Origin: Dictyostelium discoideum
Taxonomy: Eukaryota
Direction: 5' to 3'
DNA length: 64,000 bases
NCBI GenBank assembly: GCA_000004695.1
Contig: CM000154.2
Coordinates: forward strand, 4,928,001 to 4,992,000
The notes beneath the pieces were generated by a model. That model was not told the origin of the DNA, searched no databases, and was given only the letters and a program-made list of their open reading frames with translations. Positions 16,595 to 58,471 of this stretch are shown piece after piece; position 1 is the stretch's first letter, and each line of letters starts with the position of its first letter. The position numbers and the translations under genes were made by a program.

Positions 16595-16640
16595 TATTTA
16601 AAACCAACAAATAAAATAATATCATTTAAAAATTCAGATA

Positions 16641-16645
<5 letters not shown>

Positions 16646-16678
<33 letters not shown>

Positions 16679-18929
16679 TTGATTAACGAGTGTTTATCCA
16701 TTTAAAGAAATAAGCAATAATTAAAAGTTTATTTATAAAAAGGATTTTACCTAAATGTTTTTTCCCTCTTTTTTTTGAAAATTTTTTTAGTTCGAGAAAT
16801 GTTATTTTGTTTTTTTAGATTTTCAAAATTTATGGGATTAAAAATTTTAATGTCTCAATAATAAAATAGTATGTTAGAATTATTATAGCTTAAATAAATT
16901 GATCAACAATTACTCTATTTAGTAAGGTTGTACTTGGTATACAGTAGTCATTGATAATTTATTTTTTAAAAATTTTAATTAGTTTGTTGTATTCCCTTTT
17001 GTTGCAAATTGAAAGTGTGTCCTCTAGTAAAAAAACTTTATTTATGTAATCCAAAGGTGTCCAGAAAATAGTTTCAACGAGGGTGGTTCAAAGACATCTG
17101 CTCATGGTTATGGAGTAGGTCAATGGAACTTTATTTATTCAGAATTAATTCAATTATTCACTGATAGGTCCATTGCGACCAAATTGTTAAAAAAAAAAAA
17201 AAAAAAAAGGAAAATCAGTTTTATAATTTTCATAACAATAATAAATTCTTTATTTGTTTAAAATTATCTCTTTATTTCTTAACATATATTTATATATATT
17301 TATAACTAATAAATTGTAATGAATTACATTGTTTAATAATCATAATATTAATAATAGTAATAATAATAAGAATAATAATGATTAACAATTAAACAATAAT
17401 AATTAAAATAATAATTAATTTATTTAGTTTTTATATATTTTAGAGTTTTCGTTCGAAACTCCTCGGCCGAAAATAACGAAAACTCGAAAATTATAAAAAC
17501 TGAAAAAAATGAAAAAAATAAAGTTAGTTTTGATTCACGCTTTACAGCATTCATATAATATTAATTGTGTGTTCCTTTATTTATTATGATCAATATTTTT
17601 TTTTTTTTTGATATAAATAAACTATTGTAGTATACAATTAGTATGTTATTTTTATTTGTTTAATTTAGGTTTTTTAGTTTTTGTGAATTTAAAATGGTAT
17701 GTTATTTTAGATTAGGTAATTAATAATTAATTGGTGGTAATTGTTGGAATTGATTCATTTGTGTTTATGCTCCATTCTTTTTTAAATTTTTTGATGGTTT
17801 CGGACCATTGGGTTTCTTTTTGAGTTTTTGTGAGGTTGTTTTTAATTGAGTATTGGTTAAAGTTTGATAAAGTTCTTGAATATTCCAATCTTATTAGCTT
17901 GTGCCATTTTGATTTTAATATATCATAATCTAGTGTTGTGTTGTTTATTTGGTTGTTCCAATTATCAATTGATTGAGTTATATTGATGTCAAATAATGAT
18001 TTGCATAACCATATCCATATTTGGTGAATAACTAATGAGATTATGTTCCAATATGCATGTGTTCTGACTAGATCAAGATTTGTGTTTATATAATTCCAGT
18101 TGAACCTGTATTTTTTATATTGTGCGTTTTCTGCAAAATGAAAATTAATATTGATAGTTGGATCTGGTTTAAATGCTTTGTTGTTTGTTTGTGGTTTATA
18201 GATGAGTGTGTATAATTTTGTTGTATGGTTTTTTGTTAGTGACCAGTTTTTGTTTCCATTGCAATTTTTATATATAAAATATTTTAATTTGTCGTGGTTA
18301 ATGAAGTTGATTGTGTGCTGACAATTGAAAAACAAATGACCATAGGGATCATTATTCATTTCATTGTTGCAAATGGGGCAAACTTTGTTGTGTAGATGAT
18401 TAATCGGAAGACATCTAGCATGGAATCTTTGCATTGTATCTCGGCCTTTTGGATCTTTTAATTTTTGAATTTTGACAAAAAGTTGGTCGTATGTGTATTT
18501 CCATAATAGTTGTATTGATTGTTGGTGCGAAGTAAGAAGTAGATCTGAATATTTCTTGCCAATATAGTCTTTTGATTTGCATTGGTGATTGTTTAGTATT
18601 GTCGAGTAGATTTCTTTGAGTGTTGGTGGTAGTGAAATATTATTTGTGTTTAATGTTTGAGAGGGTTGGTTTTTTGTTAATATTGGTTGTAGGATTTGAA
18701 CTTTATCTTTTAGATGTCCAATTTGAGTTGCATAGTTTTCCCATTCTTTTTTTATTTTTATAAGGTATGGAGAAGAGATTGATTTGTTGNNNNNNNNNNN
18801 NNNNNNNNNNNNNNNNNNNNNNNNNNNNNNNNNNNNNNNNNNNNNNNNNNNNNNNNNNNNNNNNNNNNNNNNNNNNNNNNNNNNNNNNNTATGTTGATAT
18901 TTTTGGTTATATTATGATTACTACTACTT

Positions 18930-18964
<35 letters not shown>

Positions 18965-19705
18965 TATAATGGAATTGGGTTTGGAGTGTTCGGGTTATGC
19001 CATGATGTGTTGAAGTTGATTATTAATTGGTCTCTGTTATTTAATTTGTATATTGTTTCATTCCTTTCGATCTTCTTTATTAAAATGAATTTCTCTATTT
19101 TAATTAAGTTGGTTAGTTCTTTTTCAATTAATGTTGGATCAAATGAGGGTGGAGATTTAGATTCGTCTTGATTGAATAGTTTGTGACAAATTATTCTCCA
19201 TAGTTGATGTATAATTATGCCGATTAAATTTGGGTAGATTCTTTCTTTTTTATTTGTTTTGCTAATATCTAGTGAATTGAGATCCCAATTTCTGATCTTG
19301 AAGAATGAGAGATTGTTGAATGTTGAAATTATTATGTTTTCTATTTCTTTTACTTGCATACAGTCTATAAAAAGGTGAGTGTATGGGTCACGGATTATAT
19401 TGTTACAGATTTTGCATGGTACGTTACGTTCATAGTTGATTCCAGGAAGTGACCTTGAGAAAAATCTGAATAGTGTATTTCTACCTTTTTGATGTGATAT
19501 GTGGTTGATATGTTGGAAGATGGATGGTATGTTGATGTTATTTATTGAAATTAGATTTTTTTGTCCATCTGTTTTTCTTATTGATTTGTATTTGTGAGTG
19601 ATTAACATGTTATAGATTTCTTTAAGTTGAAGTGGCTTTTTGTTTTGACCTTTGATACAATCAGGTAGTGATTTTAGTTTATTGTGTTGATTAAAAATTA
19701 ATAAA
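16646..19705 (-). mobile_element. Fragments of a tRNA-gene-targeted non-LTR retrotransposon (TRE family, TRE3-like by position) in minus orientation. Two ORF2 C-terminal segments each carry a C..C....DPY.HLF..C cysteine motif. A long 3' UTR ends in an A-tail at about 16646-16672 (poly-T on the plus strand). An assembly gap interrupts the element.
   Basis: ORFs 18964..19740 and 17727..18434 on the minus strand. Motifs PCKICNNIIRDPYTHLFIDC and CPICNNEMNNDPYGHLFFNC. The element begins within about 10 bp downstream of the tRNA-Lys 3' end. Established knowledge: Dictyostelium TRE3 elements integrate downstream of tRNA genes. Confidence 0.6.
18790..18889. other. Assembly gap: a run of exactly 100 N inside the retroelement fragments.
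   Basis: Seen directly in the sequence. A 100-N spacer is the conventional gap placeholder. Confidence 0.95.
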
Positions 19706-19709
19706 ATTT

Positions 19710-19782
19710 CGCCCAACGGGGGGCTCGAACCCCCGACCACCAGATTAAGAGTCTGGCGCTCTACCGACTGAGCTAGCCGGGC
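19710..19782 (-). tRNA. tRNA-Lys (anticodon CUU), 73 nt, no intron.
   Basis: The reverse complement of 19710-19782 is GCCCGGCTAGCTCAGTCGGTAGAGCGCCAGACTCTTAATCTGGTGGTCGGGGGTTCGAGCCCCCCGTTGGGCG. It has a 7-bp acceptor stem with two G-U pairs, a D-arm GCTC/GAGC, anticodon stem CCAGA/TCTGG with loop CTCTTAA (CTT), a T-arm GGGGG-TTCGAGC-CCCCC, and A/B-box-like internal promoter elements (TAGCTCAGTCGG, GGTTCGAGCC). Confidence 0.9.
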
Positions 19783-19829
19783 ACTTTGGTAAAAAAAATT
19801 TAATTAAGAAACAAAACATTTTAAAAGAT

Positions 19830-20101
19830 GACCCTGTAAAAAAAACTAAAAATAAAATGAGATCTAACATCTCAAGGAGAAGCAACTAATAATTGCGTTA
19901 TCCAATTCAAAAAAAAAAAAAACATTTTAAAAGACAAAAAAAAACAAACAACAACAACAATCTCTTTTTTTGATTATTTCATTTTTCATATAAAAAAGAC
20001 TTAAAAAACAAATAAATAAATAAATAAACTATTTTAAAAAGCCATCTTTTTACTTTATTGTAATTTATTATTTGATTATTTCATTTTTCATATAAAAAAG
20101 A

Positions 20102-20466: not shown

Positions 20467-20596
20467 TAAACCAACCCCTCTTTTAGAGACCCTGTAAAAA
20501 AAAAAAAATAAAATAAAATGAGATCTAGCATCTCAAGGAGAAGCAAATAATAATTGCGTTATCCAATTCAAAAAAAAAAAAAAACATTTTAAAAGA
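19830..20596 (+). repeat. Repeat cluster upstream of the tRNA. It contains a ~106-bp direct repeat (19830-19935 and 20488-20596, over 90% identical, each ending in an A-run) and an internal ~36-bp direct repeat (19971-20008 and 20073-20108). The cluster begins exactly 48 bp upstream of the tRNA 5' end.
   Basis: The copies were aligned by eye: gaccctgtaaaaaaa...aaaatgagatctaRcatctcaaggagaagcaaMtaataattgcgttatccaattcaaaaaaaaaaaaacattttaaaaga. It is consistent with remnants of a TRE5-type insertion, since TRE5 elements target about 48 bp upstream of tRNA genes, but the family is unverified. Confidence 0.5.
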
Positions 20597-31990: not shown

Positions 31991-34900
31991 ATGTCACAAA
32001 AACAAAAACCAATTAGATTTCAAGATTATCAATTCACAGCAACCAAAGATGAAGCATATGGTAGATCGGATAGATATGTAAAACAATTTTTAAATAAAAA
32101 TTTATTAAAGAAAAAGGATGGAACATTGGGAACTGCTGAAGAGCTATTAACATTGATTCAACAATCCAATATAAATGTTGTGACAGCATCAACGGGTGGA
32201 GCAGCAATGGGTGCAATGTTAAATCATACCGTATCAACCATTAATCTAACTGGTAGTGGTAGTGTACCAACCTATAATCCATCAGATAATAGAAATAGTG
32301 GATCACATGTAATAACAAGTACAAATAGTGTAATTAGTAATTCAAGTATAAGTAGTACTGGTGTAATAAATAATAATATAAATAATAATAGTAATATAAA
32401 TAGTAATACAGGAACGACGACAACAACAATATCATTACCAAATAATACAGAAATAAAAACAGCATTAGTTTCAACTGGTAGTCAAAATGCATCCGATACA
32501 GCACAGATTGATATAGAATTTCATTTATCGTATACACAATTGGTGACATTACCACCAAGTATATTTAGTTTAATTTGGATTCAAAAGTTGGTATTGACTC
32601 ATCATAATATAAAAACATTGAGTGAAGATATTGGAAAGTTACAACAACTTCAAGTGTTGGTATTGGAGAATAATAGATTGATCAATTTACCTCAATCAAT
32701 TGGTGACTTGGTAAATTTGAAGAGATTAGAAGTCGATAACAATCATTTGGTATCACTATGTTCATTGGAGCGATTGTCAAAACTTGAAGTCCTCTCTGTA
32801 AATAATAATAAATTAACCCTATTGCCAACTTCTATCGCTTCCCTCTCTAGTTTGAAAACTTTAAATATTAAATCAAATCCAATCATTACACCACCATCAA
32901 CTGTTGTCTCTAAAGGTTTAAAAGATATTGTATCATTTCTTCGTGAATTAGAAACTGGTGCTAGACCATGTTTAAGATCAAAATTGGTAGTTTTAGGTGA
33001 TCGTAAGTGTTTTTTCGTAAAAATAAATATTAATTTAAATCAAATGATAATTGATAATATATTAATATATGTATTTTTTAATAAAAAAAGCTGGAGTTGG
33101 TAAAACATCAGTTGTACAATGTATGAAAGGTAAAAAGAAAAAAACAAATGTAACAAGTAGTAGTATAAATATTGGTGGATCAAGTGGATCAGAAGTTGGA
33201 ATTGAAATTGATCAATATGATTTTGATGTTGTATTTGATGAAGATGATAAAAAGAGAAGAGTGATAACCTTATCAACATGGGATATCGCTAATCAAGATG
33301 TTTACTTTGCAAGTAGTCAATTGTTTGATTCAGAGAGATCAGTGTATATAGTGGTATTCAATTTGAACAATGATGATTTCTCTGCCATAGAATATTGGTT
33401 ACATTGTATCATGAGTACATCACCAAATTCACCGATTGTATTGGTGGGTACACATATTGATGCATTTGAAAATTTAAATGTTGTCAATGCGGTATTGGAG
33501 AGTGTTGCCTCGAGATTTCAAAAGAGATTCACAAATATTCAAGCCATCATCTCGGTTTCATGTACCACCGGTTACGATGTCGACAAGTTACGTCAACTCA
33601 TTGAGGACATCATAAAGACTCAACCTTATCTCAAAGAGAAAGTCCCAAGTAGTTTCTTTACACTCGAGGAGGCATTGATCGAGGTGAAAAAGAAAAGAAT
33701 TCCACCAGTGATGATGTGGCAAGAATATATCAACCTAGCAAACATTTGTAATCTTAAAGACTCTGTTCAAATTCAACGTGCCACGGAATTCCTTCACAAT
33801 ATTGGCTCCATCGTTTATTTCAATGATTTAAATTCATCAACTGTTGGTAAAATGGTGATTTTGGATCAACAATGGATCATCAATTGTATGTCCTCTTTAA
33901 TCACCTCAAAGTTACTCATAAACAATTGTAATGGTATCGTTAGACAATCCGATTTGGAATTGGTTTGGAAAGCTCCAACTTATCCTGAACATCTTCATCC
34001 AGCTTTACTCTCTATCATGCAAGCATTTGAAATTTGTCGTTCATTATCACCATCGGATCTTGTACGTCCAGAGGAGGTCAATGAAAAAGAGGTCATGGGT
34101 GATCGTAATTTAGTACCAAATCTATTATCTGACAATACAAACATTGTAGCTCAATGGGATGATTTCATCGATCCTGATACAATCTTATTGAATAGACAAT
34201 ATCATTTACCATTTTTACCAGAGAAATTCTTTGGAAAGTTAATCATTCATCTTATGAATTTTACTAAAGTTGAAAGTTGTCAAAAACGTGCCGTTATCTT
34301 AAGAAATCAAGATAATCATGAAGCTTTAATTGAATTGAAAACAATTAAAGATAATAAAGATGGTACTTTTAAAAAGATTCTAACTGTTGATGTTCGTGGT
34401 CTAGTTTCACCAGTTAGTTTATTACGTATTGTAACTGATACAATTGAATCTTTATTTTCACAATGGTACAAATTAGATATTAAAAGGTAAAAATTTAATT
34501 AATTAAAAATAATAATTTTTTTTATTTAATTATTAACATTTTTTTTTTTTTATTTTTTTAATATAGATATATAAGTTGTTATGAATGTGCAATTTTATAT
34601 GATAGAAATCCAACATTATTTACAATTGAAGAATGTGAACTTGCAGTAATTGATGGTAAAACAGTTTTAACATGTAATCAAAAGAGTGATTCAGATAGAG
34701 TTTCAACATCACATAGATTGAAATTGGATATATTGGCACCAGATATTTCAATGGTAGATATACCAATACCAAGATTTAATTTAAGCGAAGTAAAGATCAA
34801 TAAAGAGGTTGGTCGTGGTGCATTTGGTATTGTTTATGAAGCGGAATGGATGAGTGAATGGATAGCATTGAAAAAGTTATTATTACCTTCATCAACCGAT

Positions 34901-37900
34901 ACAACCAATCTCAATGGTAATGGCGAAGTTATGGTCTACGATGATCCAGATCAATTGATTGAAGATCGTTTACGTGTATTTAGAGAGTTTAGACATGAGG
35001 TTTACTATATGAGTGGACTCAATCATCCAAATGTTATGAAAATCAGCGGTTTTTGTATTCAACCTTTATGTATGGCATTAGAGTATGTTCGTTATGGTTC
35101 ATTGTATAGTTTACTCTCAAATTCAAGTATAGAAATTAGTTGGGGACTACGTTTACAAATTGCTAGTGAAATCGCCAAAGGTATGCAACATCTTCATTCT
35201 CATAATCCACCCGTCATTCATAGAGATCTAAAGAGTCCAAATATACTCTTGAATGGTATTACCGAGGGTCAAAACTCAGTGGCCACAATCATTGATTTCG
35301 GTACAAGTACTGCTTTGTATGGTGGTGCCGCTTTAATTCGTTGTGTTGATCAACCACTTTGGTTGGGTCCAGAGGTTTTGGCAGGCACTGCCTATAGTGA
35401 ACCATCAGATGTTTACTCTTTTGGTATCATACTTTGGGAATTGTATACACGTGCTCATCCATTTGATGAGTTTCAATTTGGTCAATGGATGAGTAAATTG
35501 GAAGATGAAATCATTAGAGGTTTACGTCCAACTATTCCACCAACTTGTCCACCAGAATATGTAGAATTAATTCAATCATGTTGGACTCATGAACCAAATA
35601 GTCGTCCAACTTTTACAAGTATTGTCGAAATTTTAGGTCAAATTAAAAAGAAATTTGCTCCTTTACCATTTACTCATCCACCACATATTAGAAATATGAT
35701 GAGAAAATCAAGATCTTCTTCAATTTCTGAAGCAATGTTACCTTCAAATTTATTACATTTAAATTTAAATGGTATTAATAATAATAATAATAATAGCAAT
35801 AATAATAATAATAGCATACCAGTTACAACTATAAGTTTAACATCAAGTGGTACATCACCAACAAATTCACCAGTTGGTGGATTATTATCACAAAGTTTAA
35901 CTCAACCAATAACTTCAGGTGGTAGTACAAGTGGAATTTTATCAACATCAGTTAATAGAGATAATTCATCATTGGTATCAGCATCATCATTAGGTAATAA
36001 TACATCAACATCATCATTGGCTTCATTGGTATCAAATAATAGTGGTTTACATCATTCACCATCAGCTTCAGATGGATTAAATGATTATTATGGTGCGGAT
36101 AATAATAACAATAATAATGATAGTACAATGGATTTCTTCCAAGATATTTTCACAGAGGAAGAGAATGAACAACCTTATCCATTTGCAGATGATGATCAAC
36201 AAAAAGGTATACTCTTTGGTTTCGATGAAGAACAAACCAATCCAAGTGCATCATCCGTTAGTATTATCATTGCTGCAACGATGGCAAAAATGATTGAAAT
36301 GATGACTAAAGGTGAAAGTTCAGCTACATTAAAGAGTGAACATATCTCCACAAGAAGAAGATCAGATACAGCGGGTAAAAATGGTGTACCACCACATTGG
36401 AGAAATTCAGTTCCATTATCAACAAACTCCTCCACCACTTTGGATGAAACTTTTATCGATGATTTCATCTATGTTTATCGTTCATTCACAACACCAAGAA
36501 ATATTTTCAAATTATTGGTTCGTAGATTCTTTGGACCAAGACATACAGATAAAGTTGATACATTTACAATTAAGAAATTTGAACAAAAGAAAGCTGCAAT
36601 TCGTCAAGGTATTGCAGTTTTCTTAAGAAAATGGGTGGCCGATATTACAGAGTTGGAATTTAGACAAGAGGAGTTTTGGTTATATCATAATACCGTGGCT
36701 TTCACTAAACAATTCATTGCATCTGAATTCCCAACTATTGCAACTCAAATCTATGGTACATTAACAACCCATGAGGATGAAGTAAATTTAACCAATCAAA
36801 GATTCCTTCAAATTGCTTTTAGCGAAAGTGAAATTCAAATTGATCGTGCAATGTCTTCAATGCAATTAACAACACCAAAACCATTTAGAAGTCAAAAGAA
36901 TTTAGCGAATAGTTATAACTCTCAAAGTGGTGGCGGTGATTCTTCATTCTATTATCAACCATCATCAAATGATGTATCAAGAGTATTTTTAAATCTTGCA
37001 ACTGGTATGAGAGATCCATTATTAGGTATAACGGTTAAAGAAAAAAAATTCAAAAAAGATAAAGTTTCAACACTTTGTTGTAGTGGTTCAGAGATTATAG
37101 ATTGGATTACCAAATGTATGCCAATTAAAAGAGAAGAAGCATCCATTTTAGTTTTGGATATGTTGATGAAACAATTCTTTATTCAAATTTCAGATGATGG
37201 TATACCCATTTCAAATCAAAAAGGTACCAATCCAACCTTTTCAGATTCACCAACCTCATTCTATATGTTTTTAGAGGACGATCCAGAATTGATTGCTCGT
37301 CAATACACTTTCCTTGAATTGAAATATCTTCAAAATATTCATCCAAGAGAATTGTTGGGTTTCTCTGTTGGTTTGGTAATGCCAAATGAAAATGAAAAGG
37401 ATCCTGAGAAATGGAGACAATCAAATTTCCCACATATCTATGATTATTTTAGATGGTTCAATAAGATGACAATGTTAGTTAGTACAGAAATTTTAAGACA
37501 AAGAGATATTAAACAACGTGCTTCAATCATTGAAAAGTATATCTCTATCGCATTGGAGTATCTTAGTCTTTGGAATTTCAATGGTATCATGCAAGTATTA
37601 AGTTCACTCCATAGTGAACCAATTTCAAGACTCTCTGCAACTTGGGCAAAAGTTTCTCAGAGATCAATGGATTGTTTCTATGAACTCTCACGTCTTATGT
37701 TACCCGAATCCAATTATTTACCACTTCGTACGGCTTTAGCCTCACAAAAACCAAACACTATCATTCAAGCCTCACCACTCTATCCAAATATCTCCGCCTA
37801 TATGGTACATACCGTTTGTCCTACCATTCCATTCCTTGGGGCTTTAATAGCTGATCTCTCTCAAACTTGTACAGAGAATCCAACATTCATTAGTAGTGGC

Positions 37901-40049
37901 GGTGAAAAGATGATCAATATTCTTCGTGTTAAACGTCTCTCTAAAAAGATGAAAATGTTCAAAGAATACAAAGAGATGCCAACTCAATACCTTCCTGCAT
38001 TGACAACCATTCCACTCCAATACTATGAACATTATGTAAATGATTTGAAAGCATTGGATAGTTTACAAATTGATCGTCTATCTGATATCGAAAGAAAACT
38101 TGAAATCATCTGTGAAAAGAATGGCACAACCAATGATGACAAAGAGAAAGGTGATGAGAATGGTGGTGGTTTGACTAGTAGTAATTTCTTTGGTAATGGT
38201 TCCGATGAATTAACTGAACGTGATTGGACTATCCTCTTAACAAATGCTTCTGTCATCGCCTATAATCGTGGTGATGTCGTCATGGAAGAGAATGCTATAA
38301 ACACTCATCTCTATCGTATAAAGAGTGGTGCTATCTCTGTTGAAAAGAAAGATAAAGAAGGTATCAATTGTAAGGTCGCTACGATGTTTGCTCCAAAGAT
38401 GTTTGGTGAAATGTCTTTCCTTGGTAATAAAACAACTGCTCGTTTAACCGTTGATGAAGAATCTGATCTCTACGTTATGGATATTCCTTTCTTAAATAAT
38501 CTATTCAATGGTCATCCACGTTTAGGTGCTAAATTCTATAAGATTATGGCAAATCAATTGGCAATTAGATTAAAGAATTTACCATGGTCAAAACCAAAAA
38601 ATACAACTGGTGGTAGTAGTAGTAGTAATCAATCTGCTGGTCCAGATAATATTTTAGGTACAACTCCAACTGGTATTAGTAGTAGTGGCGGTGGTTTAAC
38701 TTCATTATTAAATCAAAACCTTTCATCCATTATGTCATTATCAAATAGTAATACACCACCAGCATCACCAAGAGTAATGACTACACCAACATTACCATCT
38801 CCACCAGCTCCATTACAATCTCCACCAACCAGTGGTATTAGTTCACCAACAACAACAACATCAACAACAACTGATCAACAAAAAATTAATAATACAATTT
38901 TCCAAAATGTACATCCAACAATTAATGTTCATCGTACATCTTCATCAGCAAATTTAGTTTCTCCACATGGACGTCCATCAAATTCAGGTTTCGGTCATTC
39001 AAGTGGTGGTGAAAGAACCATTAATAAAGATCCACATCAAAGAGATAGTGGTAGTATGGATAAACCAATTCTATCACTTGGAAGTGGTGGTACACCTCGT
39101 GGTGATGGTGCTCGTAGTGGATCCATTAGTTATTTAGGTCGTACTCAAACCTCAACTTCACCATTGAATGAAGGTTTAAGCGGAGGTCAACAACCAGTTA
39201 TGAAAAAGAATGATCAAGAGTTTTGTCAAAGATTTGCATTGGTCGATGAAATTGTCATTAAAGATTATCCATGTTCATTAAACCGTTCCGGTAGATTGTA
39301 TATCTCTCAACAACATGTTTGTTTCTACAGTAAATTCTTTGGTTATAAAACTAAAAAGGTAATTCCATTCAAAAATATTGACAAACTAATTTGTATCAAT
39401 GTCAATCAAATAGAACTCACTCGTCTTAAAAACACCGTACCAAGTAATTATCGTTTAACTTTCCAAACTGGCAAAGATCGTGAAGATGCTTTCAGTATGA
39501 TTCATATCCTTTGGGATTCATCAAAAGTCTCCAATTCCTCCTCTGATGAAATCAAAAATAAATTGGCTGCCGAAAGAAAGAAAGTCAATAATCTTACACT
39601 CAAAACTCGTTCCAATAAAAACAAAGGCGATGAACTCACCAAAGAGGATTGGGAATTAATCGGTTGTGAAGGTTCACGTTCCTCCACTTTCAAAAAGGAT
39701 GAAGTAATCATTCGTGAAGGTGAACGTATGCAAAAGATTTTCCAAATTGGTAAAGGTGTTTGTCGTATTGAAAAATCAGTACCTGTTGCTCCTGGCTCTT
39801 CTGAAATGAAAAAAGTTGTACTTGGAACAATGAAACAAGATGATACCTTTGGTGAAATCACTTACCTCTTAAATGGTGAAACCACTGCTGATGTCATTGC
39901 TGACACTGATCAAACCGAGGTTTATACAATCGAAGGTCAATTTGTAAATATTTTATTCGATTTAAATCCTGCTTTAGCTTCAAAATGGTTTAAATATTTA
40001 GCCACTGCTTTAAACAAAACTTTAATTGAAAGAGAATCACAACTTTATG

Positions 40050-40054
<5 letters not shown>
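31991..40054 (+). CDS. gbpC: Roco-family cGMP-binding kinase GbpC. Domain order is LRR, Roc GTPase, COR, protein kinase, RasGEF-N, DEP, RasGEF, cNMP-binding, GRAM, cNMP-binding. 2631 aa in 3 exons: join(31991..33002,33091..34486,34567..40054).
   Basis: LRRs (LQVLVLENNRLINLPQSIGDL...). The Roc P-loop spans intron 1 (KLVVLGD|PGVGKTS). Kinase motifs VGRGAFGIVYEAEW, HRDLKSPNILL and DFGTS. RasGEF-N (FIYVYRSFTTPRNIFKLLVRRFFGP), DEP, RasGEF (ARQYTFLELKYLQNIHPRELLG), two cNB domains and a GRAM domain (RSGRLYISQQHVCFYSKFFGYKTKKV). Spliced length 7896 nt gives 2631 aa, matching my recollection of GbpC. Confidence 0.88.
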
Positions 40055-40087
<33 letters not shown>

Positions 40088-40618
40088 ATTAGTTTATAGT
40101 AAATAATAATTAATTACATTAATTAAAACTGTATATATAAATATAAAATTTAATATATTCATTTAAAGAAAATAAATAAATAAATAAAATAAATAAAAAA
40201 AAAAAAATTAGTAAAATTACAAATCAATTTAATAAAATCCATAAATTTTAATTCTTAGGAATCAATTTTATTAATATTTTCTTTATTTTATTTTATTTTT
40301 TTTTTTTAAAAGAATCTTTTTAATAATAATTAAAAGTGATGTTTAACTTTAATGATTTACTATTCTTGTAACTTTTAGTATTTCTAGAAAGGAGTTTATC
40401 TATAATTCATAGGTTTACAAAAATTTAAAATAAACTTTAATGATTTACTTTTAAATTTTTGTAATCTTGATAAACCAAATACAATACCAGCAACAAAAAA
40501 ATATTGAAAACCTATGAATCTATTGATGTATTTTATTTTATTTATTGATGTTGTTGCTCATCTTTAGAATAATTTAATATAATCTTATTGAGAATAACAA
40601 TAATAACAATAATAATAT

Positions 40619-42068
40619 TTAAACATATGTTGATAAATCTGTTAAAGTAATAAAAGGGTCTCTAAAAATATTAACTTTTCCAGAAACTTCCAGTGATGCT
40701 TCAGATGTTACAACTCGAACAAATGCTAAAGAATCTAAAGAAAAACCTAAAATTTTTTTAAAATTATTACCTAAAATTTCCATTATTTGATTTGCTTTTA
40801 AACTTTTTTCAAGCGAATTAAATTTTGGATTGACATTATTGCAATGTGAAATTATTCTATACATTGTTTTTGAAGGAACTTTTAAAGTAAGAAGTTGTAA
40901 TGATTGATCATTTTCTTCTTTTTTTTTAATTCTGCCCATAGTAGGACCAAAAGAATATATAAATTCGAATTGTTTCATTGAGATTTTTGATGTATTTTCT
41001 CTCTTTCTTTTTTGATCGTTTTTATTATTTAGTTCTTTATCTTCTTCATCTTCCTCATCATCTGAACACTTATCTTCAGAAACTTCAATGTTTGATAAAT
41101 TCTCTTCCTTATCAATTTCTTCTTCTTTATCAGTTTCTTCTTCTTCTTCCTCCTCTCCTTTTTCTTCTTTTTCTTCATCATCTTCATCATCTTCTTGATT
41201 AGCATAATGCTCATAATCATCAATATCATACTCTTGATCGATATATCGAATTTTTTTATGTTTTTCATCATTAATTATTTTCTTTGGTGTTGTATTTTTT
41301 GTTTCTGTTGATGTTGTTAATCTATTAAAAAATTTATCAGAATTTCTAGTCATCCAAAGTAACATTAATGAATAAATATATGAAGGTTGAATTATAACAT
41401 CGGAAATGGAGCAATCATATTTAAAATGCAACCATTTTGTGGCTTCCTTTATTATTTCTTTATCACCATTTGAAAGTACCATATTATATGAAAGAAGTTG
41501 CGGCTCACTAGAATTATTTTTACATGAAGTTCCTTTTTCTGTATCAATATTTCTACATGAAACCAATACTATTTTTGAAAATTTATTTACATTTGCTTTA
41601 TTTTAAAAATTTGTTTTTAATAATTCTTTTAATATATATGCATGTATATTTTATATGTATGTATTTATTGACCCATTTTTTTTTTTTAAAAAAAAAAAAT
41701 AAATAAATAATCTTACCTTCTATATTTTTTGAAGAAATATAAATACCAATACTTGGAAATAATTCATTTTCTTTGATTATATTTGGATCAAGTTCTATTA
41801 TTAAAATTTTACATTCATAGGCAAAATGACGATTTCTTTTTATTGATGCTAAATTATGACTTAAAAATTGATTTAAATCACTTGTTAATTTATTTAAATA
41901 ATTTCTTTGTAACATTATATCATTACCATATTTTTGAATTTTAAAATTAAAAAGTGGAGTTACTCTATGAATATTCCAAGGAACATTTTTAAATGAATCA
42001 AATGATTTAAATTTTTCACATTCTTTTTGAAGATATATATCTAAATCTTTTAAAATATCATTTTCCAT
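40619..42068 (-). CDS. Hypothetical protein of about 433 aa with a D/E-rich acidic central stretch. Model: complement(join(41717..42068,40619..41568)). Function not recognised.
   Basis: The ORF-track ORFs 41598..42080 and 40619..41566 are joined by a GTAAGA donor at 41716 and a TAG acceptor at 41569-41570 (phase 1). The first in-frame ATG is at 42068 (MENDILKDL); the ORF tool used an upstream TTG. Confidence 0.5.
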
Positions 42069-43036
42069 ATTCGGTTTCAATTTTCATAAAAAAAAAAAAA
42101 AAAAAAAAAACAATTTTCAAAAATAAAAAAAAAAATTATTTCATAAAAACAAAAAATAAAAAATATCTTTTGGATTAAAATGAAGGATAGTAAATAAATC
42201 CAAAGTTCCTTCCAAAAGGCAAAAAATTGTATTATTTTTTTTTTTTTTAGAAAATAATTACCCTAACAATTATTTTACACAAAAAAAAAAATAAAAAAAA
42301 TAATAAAAAACAATTTTAATCCATTATATTTCCTATTTAAAAAATAACCTTATTTATCCCAACTTTTAACACCAAACTTAAATTAAAATTAGAAATTTCT
42401 TACTTTGAAAAAATTATGATCAATATATTTATTTCTTTATTTGAAACAGAGAAAATTTTTTATTATTTATTAATTTTTTTTTTTTTGTTTTTTTTTAATT
42501 TTTTTTCAATAATTTAAAAAACAAATCTATTATTATTTTCCCATTTTTAATTTCATAGTTTTTATTTTATTTAATGGGGAGATTTTCCTAGCAATTATAA
42601 TTCAATGAAAAATTTTATAATTTTTTAAAAAATAAAAAAAATTAAATAATGAAATTGTTAAAATAGGGTAAACACAACTAAATTGGAAGTAATCTTATTT
42701 TTTAATTAATAACCCCCATACCACTTGTGTTAAATTTTTTACCAGGATCCATGTTTTAATTTAATTAATTTATCAAAATTCGATAACTTTTTAATAAAAA
42801 GTAATTGATTAAAATTGTAATAAATTAAATAAAAAATTAAAAAATAAAATAAAAAAAAAGAAATAAAAAAAAAATATAAAAGGGTTGTGTTTTTAATTAA
42901 TTTATTAAATCAAAAAACTAAGTTTAATTAATTAATTAAAAAAAGAAAAACAAAACAAAACAAAACAAAGAAATGGCTTTATTTAGTAATATTAAATTTT
43001 TTTTTTTTTATAAAAAATAATAACTACAAAAATTAA

Positions 43037-43303
43037 TTAAATTATTAACCATAAACCTATATTTTTTATTTTTTGTATTTTTATTTCTATAGACTCAATC
43101 TCTAAAATTGGTTCAATCAACTCCAAATCAAACACTTTAATTAATTCTACAATGAATGGTAATGCATTTGGATCAAATGAAATCTCTGTACTTGCAAATA
43201 CCAATGTAAATGCAGCAACAAATACAAATCTTAGTGTTGCTGGTATCACATTAGTTAATGCCAAGACAAACACCAATGCGTTAAAGTTTAAATCTATTAC
43301 CAA
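43037..43303 (-). CDS. Possible small two-helix membrane protein (88-aa ORF, MVIDLNFNALVFVLALTNVIPATLRFVFVAAFTLVFAS...). Unverified.
   Basis: ORF track only. Two hydrophobic segments. No recognisable motif. Confidence 0.25.
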   Translation of the reverse strand: MVIDLNFNALVFVLALTNVIPATLRFVFVAAFTLVFASTEISFDPNALPFIVELIKVFDLELIEPILEIESIEIKIQKIKNIGLWLII

Positions 43304-43499
43304 ATGTAACAGTTGTTGTAATTACTAAAGATAACAATGATATATTGTATCCCATAAATACTATTACCTTATTATTATTATGATTTTATCCACACATACA
43401 TACACACCATCATAACTACATTGATTAATTTTTTTTTTTATATAATTTTTTTTTTTATTTTATTTTATTTTTTTTTTACACTATATTACTATATATAAT

Positions 43500-44203
43500 T
43501 TATTGTACGTGTTCTACTTTACTAAGTGGTTCTTCTAAATATTCACGTAATTTTTGTGTCTATAGTAATAATAATAAAAATTAGTAAAGAATAAAATAAT
43601 TAATGAAATCTGAAACTAAGTTTATATAGAGATATACCTTTAATTTTAATAAACCAAATTCAGTATTGATATCGCTATATACACATAATAAAAGAGATGC
43701 AANCTCTTGTAATTACAAATCTTCCCTCCTTTTATATAATAATAAAAATAAAACTATTAGTATGCATGTTTTAAACCAAAGTGCGTAAAAATGTTTTATA
43801 TGTTTATAATGCATTTAATATTGTATATTATTAATACGAACTTCACAATCAATTAATTGATATTGTAAATCTGAATTTCTATTATAAGCAGTCCAAATAT
43901 TTGAAGTAATGGCTGCAACAATTTTTGAGGTATTGTGTGATGATGTTGTAGCATCTGAACATGCAATTAATGAGCCATCATCTTTCATTAATCTGTTTAA
44001 ATAGCAACAATTAATTAATAAACAAATAATAATGTTCATAAAGAAATAGTTAGTATTATGGTTTTTTTTTTTTTTTTTTTTCATTTTTTTTCGGTCGGGG
44101 AAAAAAGATTTTGTATTATAAAATATACACACAATACACCTTTAGTATCTGTATTGTTTATGGCTTGATTTAAAATTTGTGGTAAAATCTTTGATCTTAA
44201 CAT
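43500..44203 (-). CDS. Ragulator subunit LAMTOR2 (p14/ROBLD3) homologue, about 124 aa in 4 exons: complement(join(44133..44203,43842..43992,43638..43728,43500..43559)). The reading frame in exon 3 is disturbed by the ambiguous base at 43703.
   Basis: MLRSKILPQILNQAINNTDTKGV|LLMKDDGSLIACSDATTSSHNTSKIVAAITSNIWTAYNRNSDLQYQLIDCE|EGRFVITR(V)ASLLLCVYSDINTEFGLLKLK|TQKLREYLEEPLSKVEHVQ aligns along its length with human LAMTOR2 (MLRPKALTQVLSQANTGGVQ...EGSLLAYSG...TAAIASNIWAAYDRNG...LMDCMEGRVAITRVANLLLCMY...LVQYLEEPLTQV). Confidence 0.78.
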
Positions 44204-44811
44204 TCTAGTATACGTCTATTTTTATTTTAATTTTAGTTCTTGAAACAAATATAAAAAAAAAAAAAAAAAAATATTTTGAAAAAAAAAGAAAAAAAAAAAT
44301 AAAAAATAAAAAAAAATAAAAATAAAATAAAAAAAATTAAAAAAAAAAAAAATTTTAAAATAAAACTCATTTTAAATTTCCATCCCTAAACAAAACAAAT
44401 AAAATGAATAATCAACAATATTGTTTTTTACAAAATGTGGCAAATTAAAGAAACAATTGTTACCTTTGTTGTTTTTTTAATTTGTCGCATTTGGTAAAAA
44501 AAAAAAAAAAAAAAAAAAAAAATGAAAATTTGATTATTGAATAAATCAAATTTTCATTTTTTTTATTTTATTTTATTTTATTTTTTTTTGGTTCAATGAT
44601 TTTCTTATAGTTGTGTTCTTCCTTTTTCATTTCATTAAATATATTTAAAAAATTTTTCAAAAAAAAGATTTCCAGAAAAAAAAAAAAAAAAATTATGATA
44701 ATATCAATTTTCAAGAAAAATATTTCAAGAAAAAAAAATTAAAAAAAAGGGATAAAAATAGATCAATTTTTTTTTTTTTTTTAGGATCATGGTTTAAATA
44801 GATACCAAAAA

Positions 44812-44863
<52 letters not shown>

Positions 44864-45538
44864 AATAAACTTAATAAAAAATAATAACTAAGAAAAAAAA
44901 AAAAAAAAAAATAAAAAAATGGTCTCATTGCATTATAAACCCATAAAAAATAATAATTAAGAAAAAATTAAAAAAAAAAAAAAAAATTAAAAAAAATTAA
45001 AAAAAATTAAAAAAAATTAAAAAAAATTAAAAAAAACTAAAAAAAATTAAAAAAAAAATTTAATTATTTGAAAAATGGTTGTGTGTGAACTAAATCACTT
45101 TTTTTTTTTTTTAAATTTTTTTTTTTTTGATATTTTTTTTTTTAAAAAATTTTTTTTTTTTTCTTTTTTATAATTTTTTATAAAGTCAATTTGTTGTAAT
45201 ATATTTGTTGTATCTATATCTCTTTTTTAAATTAATATGTAAGTTTCTTTAATTTTTTTTATTTTATTTTTATTTTTATTTTTTTATTCAATTTGAATTT
45301 AGTTTATCAAATTTGATTATATATATTATTTTTTACAAATAAAATTAATATAAAAAGATTATTCAAAGAATTGAGTCTAACCAATTTTTTTTTTTTTTTC
45401 TTTTTTTTTCTTTTTTTTTTTTTTTTTAAATTAAAATTAAAAAAATTAATTAAATTATCAATTTTTTTATTTTATTTTTTTTATTTTTTTATTTTTTTTT
45501 TTTATATTTAACAAATTAATAAATATAATTTTTAAAGA

Positions 45539-46132
45539 ATGTCAGATAATCACGAAGAAGAATCAAACGTACCAGCCTACGTCCCAGGTAAACACGTTTC
45601 AGTCGATCAATTAAAACAACAAGATGCTGAAGATGAAGCATTAAAACGTTATAAAGAATCACTTTTGGGTACTGGTGTTCATGCCCCAAAGGATGACCCA
45701 AGAAAATTGGTTATCAAAGAAATGAAAATCCAAATCGAAGGTAGACCAGATACTATTTATCCACTCGACACAAAAGAATTAATTAAAGAAATGAAAACCA
45801 AGCCATTCGTTCTCAAGGAATCATGTCACTACAAGATCACCTTAACTTTTAACATTCAACACGATATCGTTTCTGGTCTCAAACAAACCAACACTGTCTA
45901 CAGAAAAGGTATCAAAGTTTCAACTGAAAAACACATGCTTGGTTCATTTGCCCCACAAGCTCTTGCTCACTCTGTCACCAACCCAAGACATGGTTGGGAA
46001 GAAGCTCCATCAGGTATGTTAGCTCGTGGTAGTTACACCGCCAAAGTCGTTTTCACTGATGATGATAACGAAGAACATTTATCAGTTGAATATGCTTTCT
46101 CAATTAAATCTGACTGGAAGAGTGATGATTAA
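45539..46132 (+). CDS. rdiA: Rho GDP-dissociation inhibitor (RhoGDI), 197 aa, single exon.
   Basis: Full-length match by eye to RhoGDI (…KYKITLTFNIQHDIVSGLKQTNTVYRKGIKV…WEEAPSGMLARGSYTAKVVFTDDDNEEHLSVEYAFSIKSDW). The symbol is from memory of the Dictyostelium RhoGDI1 name. Confidence 0.85.
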   Translation: MSDNHEEESNVPAYVPGKHVSVDQLKQQDAEDEALKRYKESLLGTGVHAPKDDPRKLVIKEMKIQIEGRPDTIYPLDTKELIKEMKTKPFVLKESCHYKITLTFNIQHDIVSGLKQTNTVYRKGIKVSTEKHMLGSFAPQALAHSVTNPRHGWEEAPSGMLARGSYTAKVVFTDDDNEEHLSVEYAFSIKSDWKSDD

Positions 46133-46209
46133 ATTATTAGTGTTAATATACTTTTAAAAATTTAAATAATAACCAGGAAAATTTTCTAAATCAAAAAAAA
46201 AAAAATATT

Positions 46210-46253
<44 letters not shown>

Positions 46254-46990
46254 CGGTTTTTTTTTTTTTATAATATAAAACCAATAATAAAATAAATATC
46301 TAGATTTGTATCCTTATTGATGAAATTTTAATTTTTTTTTTTTCCTAATCAATTTTCTAATTAGTATTTGGAAATTTCAATTTTATTTTTTAAATTTAAT
46401 TTCCAAAAATTAAAGAGAAATTGTAAATTGGAGTTCAGACAATTATTAGCAGTTGGTATTAATTTATTATTAATATCATTGACTATTATTTAATTATTTT
46501 TATTTTCACCTATTTTTATTTTCACCAAAGCCAAAAAAAAATAAAAAAAAATAAAATAAAATAATTTAAATAAAAAAAAAGAAAAAAAAAAAAAATATGG
46601 AAAATTATTTTTTTTAAATTGGAAGGTTTAAAATTATATTATATTTTGGTCATTGGGATTTGTTTTGTTTCAAAACCATATTAAAAATATTTTTCTTTTT
46701 GTTTAATTTTTATTTTGTATCTCCTGTGTAAAAAAATGGGGTGTTTATTTTTTTTTTTTTGCAAATATTTTTGGATTGTTTCTTAAAACAACAAAATTTT
46801 TATTTTTATTTTTTTCACATTAAAAATAAATAAAATTAAATTGTTGTTATTTTTACAAAAATATTGATAATAATGTCCTAATACTTTTTTTTTTTTTTTT
46901 TTTTAATTTATGGTTTACAATACAAATTAATATTTGTTTAATTTTTATTTTTAATAGAGAAATTATCAAATACAATTATAAAAAGTTTAA

Positions 46991-48066
<1,076 letters not shown>

Positions 48067-48243
48067 TTTTGAAATAGTTTTACAATTAAATAAATAAATA
48101 AACAATTAAATAAAGTTTGAGTTGATTTGATAATAAAATTAAAAAAAATTGGAAATTTGTCAAATTTATACTCTGATTAATATTTTTTTTTTTTTTTTAT
48201 TTTTTAAATTTGGATTAAATTAGATATCTACTACGCCCGAAAA

Positions 48244-48290
<47 letters not shown>

Positions 48291-49010
48291 AAAAAATACT
48301 TTTTCTGAAATCATAAAGTGTGAATTCCTGAGGCTTGATTATTTCACACCATGTTTAGATAATAATTTTGTTTAAAATGGTTGTTTATTTTAAAATTTTT
48401 TAAAAAAGTCTTATTATTTGGTTAAACATAAAAAAAATTATTTGAAAATGTATTAATTCTAACCCTAAAAATTTAAATAAATTTCAGGAGTGTTCACCAG
48501 GTGGAGTGAATTTGTAGAAAAGTGATTAAAAAAATAAATAAAAAAAAAAAAAATAAAAAAAAAAAATCAATGATGATTAATAACAACACTAAGAACAATT
48601 TTAAAATCATATCAATGTCAAACTTTCAAAGGATTTATAATTATATTAATAGCTTTTTATTATATTTTTAAACAGTTGAACATTATCATAAATTTAAGTT
48701 GGTTTTTTTTTTTTTTTTTAAATAATAATTATTAATTATCCGTTTCGGTTTTTTAAAATTAAAATTAATAAATAAAAAATTAAAAACAATTAATTCAAAA
48801 ATTCAGAGGTTTGGAAATATTCTTTGGTAAAAACTTTCATAAAAAAAAAAAAAAAAAAAAAAAGGTATTATTAATTGATTTAATTTATTATATTTAATTT
48901 ATAATTTATTATATTTAATTTATAATTTATTTAAATAATAAATAATAGTTTAATTTTTTAATTTTTTAATTTTTTAATTTTTTAATATTTTTTTAATTTA
49001 TTATGTGTTT

Positions 49011-50032
49011 TTAAGAAGTACCAGTTTTTGATAATTTTGATAAAACCTCGGCATCAGTTAATAAATTTTCTAATTGCATAAAGTAATGAGGTATAATATT
49101 ATTATTTGATTCTAACATGTGAATTAATAATTTTTCATTCTTCCAATTTGGATGATCAGCTTGTAATGCTCTAACATCATTTTTAATATCTCTATACATT
49201 TTATAAGGATAATGATGAAGTTGATGAAATAATTGAGCACGTTTAAAACAAAATGAACCCAATTCATATTGAATTTCATCAGGTTCATCTTTTGATGTAC
49301 CTTTTAAACGTTTTGGATTTTCAAAATAACCATTCCAAAAATCATCGACTGAATAAGAACGACCTGATAAAAATATGATAATTGTAGCAGCATGTTTAAA
49401 TTTATTACAAGATTCACATGGACCACCAGCGACATAATTGATTTCAATCGATCTAAAGAATGGTCTATGAGTAATATCATGTAAAAATCTATCGTGCCAA
49501 AAACTACTCAATACCAATGCTTCCTTTCTTGATGCTATTAAAGTTTGAATTCTTTTTAAAGAATCTAAAAAGTATTCATCCTTTTCTTGAATTGTTTCTT
49601 TTAGAAATTCCTTATCAAGTATACAACTTATAATATATTGAACGAAAATATCAAATGAATCTCTAATTGTTTTTTTTATAGAAAATTGTTTTGATACCAT
49701 CTCTTTAACTTTATCAGGTTCTTGAGAACTAATATCTACAAATTTCTTTGGTGAAAATGGGGATGATCTCTTTGATGGCGAAAATGGTGAATGAGGCTTT
49801 TTTGATGGTGAATTTGTAGGAGAAGGAGTAGAAGGAATTTGAGAAAAAGGATATGCACTCTTTTTATTCAATTTACTTTTATTAAAATCATCATCGTAAT
49901 CATCATATGGTTCCTCATTACCATAATCTCTTTCATTGTCACTATTATAATTATTTAATATATTATTATTATTATTATTAATATCATATCTTTTATCATT
50001 ATCATTATTATTCTTATTCTTTCTTTGAGATG

Positions 50033-50123
<91 letters not shown>

Positions 50124-52576
50124 ATTATTTTCTTCTTCACTACTTGATTCACATAAATCAGAAGCATCACTATTTACAACGAAATCATTATATTCATATT
50201 CTTCTTGTTTGAAATCATCTTGATCACTTTCTTCATCATCAATGAAATAATTTGATTGATTACTAAATTGGTACAATCTTCTTGCTCTTTCTTTTCTTTC
50301 AAAATCGTTTCTAAATTTTTTACTTTCTTTTTCTTTATCTTTTATTTTTTCCATTCTTTTTTTTAGTTGATCTCTCCATCTTTTTTCCTGTTTTCTAATA
50401 TTTTTCATTGTTTCAGAAAAATCTTCATTTATTTCTTTCATCTCTTTTGGTTTGTTAGGAGTGGTTGAAGTGGTATTGGTATTAGTATTGGCATTGGTAT
50501 TGGAAGTAGTGGTGGTGGTAGTAGTTTCTCTAGGACGTGAATTGTAATCTATTCTAATCTTTTCTGATTTTTTCAATGCTTCATATAGATCATCACAATC
50601 TTTTTCTGTTATATTAATTGGTGTTGTGGGGGTGGAGGTAGTGGTTGAATATTTAGGAAGTGGGTTATAATCTATTCTAATCTTTTCATCTTTTTTCTTT
50701 ACTTCAAATAGATCAGTATCACCAATATTACTTTTTTTAAGTTTCTCAAGTAAATTATTGTCTTTATCTTTTTGAGGTTTAATTTCCTCGAAATTAAAAT
50801 CTAGTTGATCATCATCAATAATACCATAAAAATTATTATCTTTAGTATGATTATTGTTGTTTTCTGTAATAATACTTTTTGTAATAATATTATCATCATC
50901 GTCAATAATACCATAAAAACTATTATCTTGTGTATCTTTTTTGTTGCTCTCTTTAATTCCTGTAATATTACTTTTTGTAATATTATCATCACCAATAATA
51001 CCATAAAAACTATTATCTTGAGTATCATTATCGTCACCACCTATATTTTCAAATCCACTACCATCATCTTCAGGAATTGATGAACTTGGAATTGGTTCTT
51101 TCCAACCCAATACAATAATATTATTGTTATTATCATCATTATCGATATCATCATCATCATTATCATTATCATTATCATTATCATCATCACTATTTTCAAT
51201 ATCTTTTAATTTTTTTAATCTTGATTTAGTTGGTAATTTTTCTTGTTTACTTTGTTTTTCTTTTAATAGTTTTTGTATTGCTTTATTTGTAACGATTTGA
51301 GGATTATGGGTACTTATTAAATCATTTTCAATTGCTTGAGTACTGCTTTCACTTAACATTTTTAATCTTTTTAAAATTTTAAGTTTCTCTTCTTGAGTTT
51401 CTGTATCAACTTGATCATTATCATCTTTTTTATCATATTTATCATGAGGATGATGATGGTGATGCTCATTATCATCATCATCGTCATCAAAGGCATTATT
51501 GGTGTTTTTTCTTTTCTTTATTACTCTACAAGGTGAAATGAGGTCATTTATTTCTTGATATCTTTCATTATCTTTATCTTTATCTTTATCTTTATCTTTA
51601 TCAATATCTTTATCAATATCTTTATCTTTATCAATATCTTTATCAATATCTTTATCTTTATCAATATCAATATCACTATCAATACCATCATCTCTATCAT
51701 CATCTTCATCACCATACTTATTATATTTTGTTGTTGTTACTATTAATTTATTTGTTTTTGGTGATTCTTTAATTTTTACTTTATTTTTTTTATTATTATT
51801 ATTAAAATCACTATCATCATTGCTAATACTATAACCACCACTATCATCACTATCATTAACATTACCATTATCATTATCAATTTCATCTTTAATTTCATAT
51901 AATAATCTATTTTTTGCTTTAAAATTTAATAATAAATCTGAATAAGAATCTAAACAATAAAATAAATTACCATGATATATTGGTCTATCTAAATAACTTG
52001 AAAATGGTAAAACTGTACAATAAACCATTTTTTTAATTTCATTTAAATTCATTATCACTGAATCTACACTTGGAATTAACTCTTTTGAACCATGAATTTC
52101 TAATCTACCACCATCAACCTCTTCTGGTCTATAAATTTTAATTAATTCAATAAATAATCCACCATTAAATTTATCTTTAAAAAATGATGATATTTTATAA
52201 ATTGATGGTATTTTTATTCTTTTTTTTTTTTTTTTTTAAAATAAATAAATAAATAAATAATGAATTTTTTTTTAAAAAAAAAAAAGATTTAATAATTTGG
52301 TTATTTTATTTTATTTTATTTTATTTTATTTTATTTTATTTTATTTTATTTTATTTTATTTTATTTTATTTTATTTTAAAATTACTTTTTATTTTGACTT
52401 TTAAAATCAAATAATTTTATTGTTAAATCTAAAAATAAATCTATACCTTCAAATAATAAACCACCATAAAATTCATAATCTCCAACTACTTTAATAGGTT
52501 TTCCTAACCATTGAGTTTCATTTTTATAAGAATTTATTGGTTCACCATCAAAATCATACTCTATTTTACTACCCAT
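49011..52576 (-). CDS. Large low-complexity protein of about 1132 aa. It has conserved-looking N-terminal (~170 aa) and C-terminal (~230 aa, with a CESC motif) domains, a poly-Asn tract and internal tandem peptide repeats. Model: complement(join(52386..52576,49011..52218)). Function not recognised.
   Basis: Exon 1 (MGSKIEYDFDGEPINSYKNETQWLGKPIKVVGDYEFYGG...) ends at a GTAATT donor. The intron of about 167 nt is dominated by (ATTTT)n. An AG acceptor at 52219-52220 restores the frame of the 1015-aa ORF. Repeats: (KDKDIDKDID)n at about 51555-51700, three FYGIIDDD units, and two EKIRIDYN units. Confidence 0.55.

Positions 52577-52831: not shown

Positions 52832-58471
<5,640 letters not shown>

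Follow-up and report, generated by a model that had tools for sequence, protein, structure and literature searches.

A single ambiguous base in exon 3 of a Dictyostelium discoideum LAMTOR2 gene as a very probable assembly artefact

In the window, by which we mean the whole 64,000-nucleotide stretch of Dictyostelium discoideum DNA analysed here (A+T content 76%), exactly two stretches of N are present: a gap of 100 N spanning 18790-18889 and one N standing alone at 43703. The latter, the only isolated N in the 64 kb, lies inside exon 3 of a LAMTOR2 gene, at a point where the reading frame changes by one. Does this gene carry a genuine lesion in the sequenced strain, or does the extra position belong to the sequence file alone? 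Reading frames and GT/AG signals served to place the exon ends, and the gene is composed of the following parts.

44203-43500, minus strand: LAMTOR2 gene (Roadblock/LC7), four exons
44133-44203, minus strand: LAMTOR2 exon 1, 71 nt; ATG at 44203-44201; codes MLRSKILPQILNQAINNTDTKGV and contributes 2 nt to a Leu codon
43842-43992, minus strand: LAMTOR2 exon 2, 151 nt; codes ...LMKDDGSLIACSDATTSSHNTSKIVAAITSNIWTAYNRNSDLQYQLIDCE; AG and GT ends kept in the six comparison assemblies (L001-L006)
43638-43728, minus strand: LAMTOR2 exon 3, 91 nt in the window; codes, without the N, EGRFVITR-V-ASLLLCVYSDINTEFGLLKLK
43703, minus strand: ambiguous base N; extra position shifting the frame by +1, within g-n-t-t (43704-43701)
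43500-43559, minus strand: LAMTOR2 exon 4, 60 nt including TAA (43502-43500); codes TQKLREYLEEPLSKVEHVQ followed by the stop; in phase with exon 3

The preliminary description had placed exon 3 of a LAMTOR2 homologue at 43638-43728; this span is exact, and the identity of the gene is corroborated by Pfam and PDB matches. Other phases for the junction of exons 1 and 2 were tried and rejected: only with the donor tt/gtgtgt (phase 2) is the frame maintained across the junction to the one AG acceptor in front of exon 2. The boundary of exon 1 with its GT donor recurs in the six other assemblies. Where the window has GTGTGT as donor, L001 and L003 have GTATGT, and the junction is confirmed in the other assemblies both by this donor and by gene calls with the same ends.

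On the minus strand exon 3 reads GAG GGA AGA TTT GTA ATT ACA AGA G-N-T-T GCA TCT CTT TTA TTA TGT ..., with AGA at 43707-43705, g-n-t-t at 43704-43701 and GCA at 43700-43698; the earlier position of gnt-t, 43702-43705, was off by one. The translation gives EGRFVITR, then the four bases gntt, then ASLLLCVYSDINTEFGLLKLK one frame on. It had been claimed that the exon starts in the frame of EGRFVITR, is shifted by one and then runs cleanly into exon 4, and that the shift falls at the ambiguous base. The translation and the human alignments agree with the former, and the N at 43703 does lie between the codons AGA and GCA. In BLASTP comparisons the peptide upstream of the N matches residues 1-85 of human LAMTOR2 (E 7e-21), and the peptide downstream of it, read in the +1 frame and into exon 4, matches residues 87-122 (E 4e-13). 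With human V86 as the one residue unaccounted for, the four bases are one too many, and the match on the two sides is far beyond chance.

The consequences of the extra position for the coding sequence are simple. With the N the raw spliced coding sequence has 373 nt and meets a stop nine codons past the N (...EGRFVITRXCISFIMCI, then stop), and without it 372 nt remain open and encode 123 amino acids. Other repairs were also considered, in which the N was replaced by each base and one of the following T residues was deleted; the residue encoded there then becomes D, A, G or V, of which V alone fits the six other assemblies and human LAMTOR2. To read the N as T and drop one T, or to delete the N, leads to one and the same DNA (GTT = Val); the two repairs are therefore interchangeable.

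The identity of the repaired protein was established at several levels. It matches the Pfam family Robl_LC7 (PF03259) over residues 16-91 with 34.9 bits and E 1.3e-8, the threshold being the gathering score of 23 bits, and it aligns over residues 1-119 with the solved human and mouse LAMTOR2 chains (best E 4.9e-26). At E<=1e-3 the PDB search yielded 12 sequences; each of them is LAMTOR2/p14/MAPBPIP, and all other Roadblock proteins stay outside this limit. After repair the protein has 123 aa and a single domain, and its orthologues have 122-124 aa. Domain match, full-length similarity to solved structures and size place the window gene in the LAMTOR2 branch of the Roadblock/LC7 family, and DDB_G0291091, by the same sequence comparisons, is orthologous to LAMTOR2 (p14, Roadblock/LC7 fold), a subunit of Ragulator. 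As a LAMTOR2 protein it would be predicted to form a heterodimer with LAMTOR3 within Ragulator on late endosomes and lysosomes.

In a search of a large protein collection one cluster (P0001) showed 100% identity over 100% coverage to the repaired protein of 123 aa. Among its accessions is EAL61893.2 ('hypothetical protein DDB_G0291091 [Dictyostelium discoideum AX4]'), and three further ones belong to proteins of more recent D. discoideum assemblies. The repaired translation equals EAL61893.2, which assigns the window to D. discoideum and shows that the gene has been catalogued before, with a correct protein publicly available for AX4. Two orthologue records in the same collection are unusual: that of D. 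purpureum (P0006, 92 aa) is without precisely that part which exon 3 encodes (EGRFVITRVASLLLCVYSD...LKLK), and that of D. citrinum (P0008) has 200 aa vs 123. Both oddities are probably annotation errors in the gene models. A literature search on DDB_G0291091 and on Dictyostelium together with LAMTOR2 returned nothing on the gene, LAMTOR2 or Dictyostelium being mentioned just in passing or in reference lists, and in a search on the handling of sequencing errors at dictyBase the transcriptome-annotation paper was silent about the N site.

Independent DNA sequences of the locus were then compared with the window. Six assemblies were used, coding for the repaired protein or for near-identical cluster members; L001-L003 and L006 are from D. 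discoideum, L004 is from D. firmibasis and L005 from D. dimigraforme. The site reads ATTACAAGAGTTGCATCTCTT (AGAG-TTGCA), without an extra base, in six out of six, and the codons are AGAGTTGCA, i.e. R V A. Each assembly has four exons, a 90-nt exon 3 and GT-AG introns at the same positions, and the gene calls have 123 aa; exon 3 is thus 91 nt long in the window vs 90 nt in every other assembly. The proposal that deletion of the N restores R V A as in the human protein is borne out by these six readings and by the identity of the repaired 123 aa with EAL61893.2.

The closest comparison is provided by L002 (GCA_054883475.1, a chromosome-scale record of 5.29 Mb), the strain of which may not be AX4: it shares 99.5% identity with 10.7 kb of the window (38495-49239). 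Base by base there are 17 differences, and the N is the sole one within a LAMTOR2 exon. The remaining 16, none of them in the LAMTOR2 exons, are half differences in the length of A/T runs and half point substitutions or a small rearrangement; some of them may reflect differences between strains or additional errors in the reference. A rearranged patch is seen at about 46246-46262, where ACCGGGTT is present in the window and missing from L002.

The pattern of substitution in the exons was informative as well. Compared with the window, L001 and L003 have many indels in the introns, and the exons differ at no position in L001 and at one, synonymous, position in L003. The exons of D. firmibasis show 15 nucleotide differences with a single amino-acid change, and those of D. 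dimigraforme 17 nucleotide differences with three amino-acid changes. Since the differences between species are mostly synonymous, LAMTOR2 is under purifying selection. At the repaired position Val is found in human LAMTOR2 and in four of the five orthologues from more distant dictyostelids in which this column is covered, with Cys in the remaining one. By this pattern LAMTOR2 is a constrained, functional gene without pseudogene decay: the lesion consists of an N that none of the six other assemblies contains, and the constraint is not relaxed. The suggestion that the N is a spurious inserted base and not a pseudogenising mutation is supported on both counts.

The neighbourhood of the gene was annotated by scanning the larger open reading frames against Pfam, and the gene order around LAMTOR2 is the same in L001-L003.

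34718-40054, plus strand: large ORF, C-terminal part of a GbpC-type Roco kinase (Pfam: kinase, RasGEF_N, DEP, RasGEF, GRAM, two cNMP-binding domains)
40619-41566, minus strand: CENP-L-like protein (Pfam)
45539-46132, plus strand: RhoGDI (Pfam)
49011-52058, minus strand: DUF4211 protein (Pfam)
52832-58090, minus strand: PI3-kinase-like protein (Pfam)

The Roco kinase has 2631 aa in the gene call of L002 and stands three genes from RhoGDI.

The other stretch of N in the window lies in a region (16640-19790) of a different kind. The gap at 18790-18889 is situated between the minus-strand ORFs 17727-18434 and 18964-19740, which have a common Cys/His motif, C-x2-C...DPYxHLFxxC (BLASTP E 3e-8); the Pfam scan of these two ORFs gave no match. 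ORF 18964-19740 runs straight into a long poly(A) tract (poly-T on the plus strand at about 18930-18963), and a second tract of the poly(A) type is found at about 16645-16671, roughly 1 kb past the end of ORF 17727-18434. Both ORFs are immediately downstream of a tRNA-Lys(CUU) gene (19709-19783, minus strand). The two look like tandem 5'-truncated copies of a tRNA-targeted non-LTR retrotransposon, which we take to be TRE3-like; if so, such tandem copies would account for the 100-N gap. Furthermore, a 95-nt direct repeat with 91% identity (19838-19932 and 20499-20593, 661 nt apart) is located in A-rich intergenic DNA just upstream of the tRNA-Lys gene.

Several explanations for the N at 43703 have to be weighed together. 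The AX4 clone that was sequenced might truly possess an extra nucleotide, whether fixed as a 1-nt insertion or present in a mixed population that gave rise to the N, with LAMTOR2 truncated after ...EGRFVITR. The deposited sequence does hold an extra position, as this explanation demands, but an N is by definition no confident base call, the AX4 record EAL61893.2 is an uninterrupted protein, the base is missing even from the assembly that is 99.5% identical to the window, and all other isolates and the sister species are without it while the exons are strongly constrained. We therefore regard such an insertion as very unlikely, and a slightly smaller chance is given to the statement that the AX4 laboratory strain or a sequenced sub-population carries a genuine 1-nt insertion in LAMTOR2. 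If it were true, the axenic reference strain would be a partial or complete Ragulator mutant, which could bear on macropinocytosis-dependent axenic growth and on TORC1 signalling.

A different exon structure, in which alternative splicing or a very short intron avoids the site, would make a repair unneeded. It is a formal possibility, resting on the circumstance that 'gnt' might be taken for a GT donor were the N absent, but both flanks of the N are coding and are contiguous to human LAMTOR2 residues 85 and 87 with a gap of one residue, and the same 90-nt exon, flanked by AG and GT, is uninterrupted in the six other assemblies, with gene calls of 123 aa; we consider it exceedingly improbable. 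The smallest probability of all, close to nil, is assigned to programmed +1 ribosomal frameshifting or transcript editing, for which no supporting point was found: a programmed shift site should be kept in close relatives, but all orthologous loci are in frame, the near-identical D. discoideum assemblies included. The uninterrupted, conserved exon in all relatives directly contradicts both the alternative exon structure and programmed frameshifting.

Compared with these alternatives, it is almost certain from the sequence comparisons that the N at 43703 represents an uncalled consensus position without a real nucleotide, so that the true sequence would be AGA GTT GCA (R V A) and the gene would be intact. 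The change of frame coincides with the ambiguous call, and independent sequences of the locus are without the base. Because the other assemblies lack it and the curated AX4 protein record is uninterrupted, AX4 itself would be expected to have no extra base here. In the Sanger era, when a consensus was built, a pad column with an extra peak in a minority of reads was exported as an undetermined base. The N would most likely go back to such a pad column, formed when the Sanger reads were originally assembled and exported as N, and the column itself might have arisen from a minority of reads with an extra peak beside TT. The extra column would then lengthen exon 3 from 90 to 91 nt, and the apparent +1 frameshift would be confined to the sequence file. 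The practical weight of this conclusion is one of data hygiene only: automated gene finders applied to the reference would be expected to truncate or mis-splice DDB_G0291091 as long as the N is retained. The newer assemblies already give the correct DNA, and the N in LAMTOR2 holds no new biology.

The window protein can finally be set beside what is known. Human and mouse LAMTOR2 (p14, ROBLD3, MAPBPIP; PDB 5x6u_B, 1vet_B and others) likewise consist of one Roadblock/LC7 domain of about 125 aa, and in the alignment residues 1-119 of the query correspond to chain residues 1-122 with an identity of about 45-50%. The motifs MLR.K.L.Q.L.QA, AAI.SNIW.AY, DC.EGR..ITRVA.LLLC.Y, FG.LK.K and YLEEPL are common to these proteins and the window protein; relative to the human one, the latter has three additional residues after ACSD and lacks seven after NRN. 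The protein of DDB_G0291091 (EAL61893.2; 'Roadblock/LAMTOR2 domain-containing protein' in UniRef) is identical to the repaired translation, and the extra N sits in the window DNA only. As regards the lesion itself, isolated ambiguous or pad bases of the Sanger era are known to make artificial frameshifts, and the N in LAMTOR2 shares with them a single N at the change of frame, the restoration of a conserved protein upon its removal and the absence of the position from later assemblies, which makes it a textbook match.
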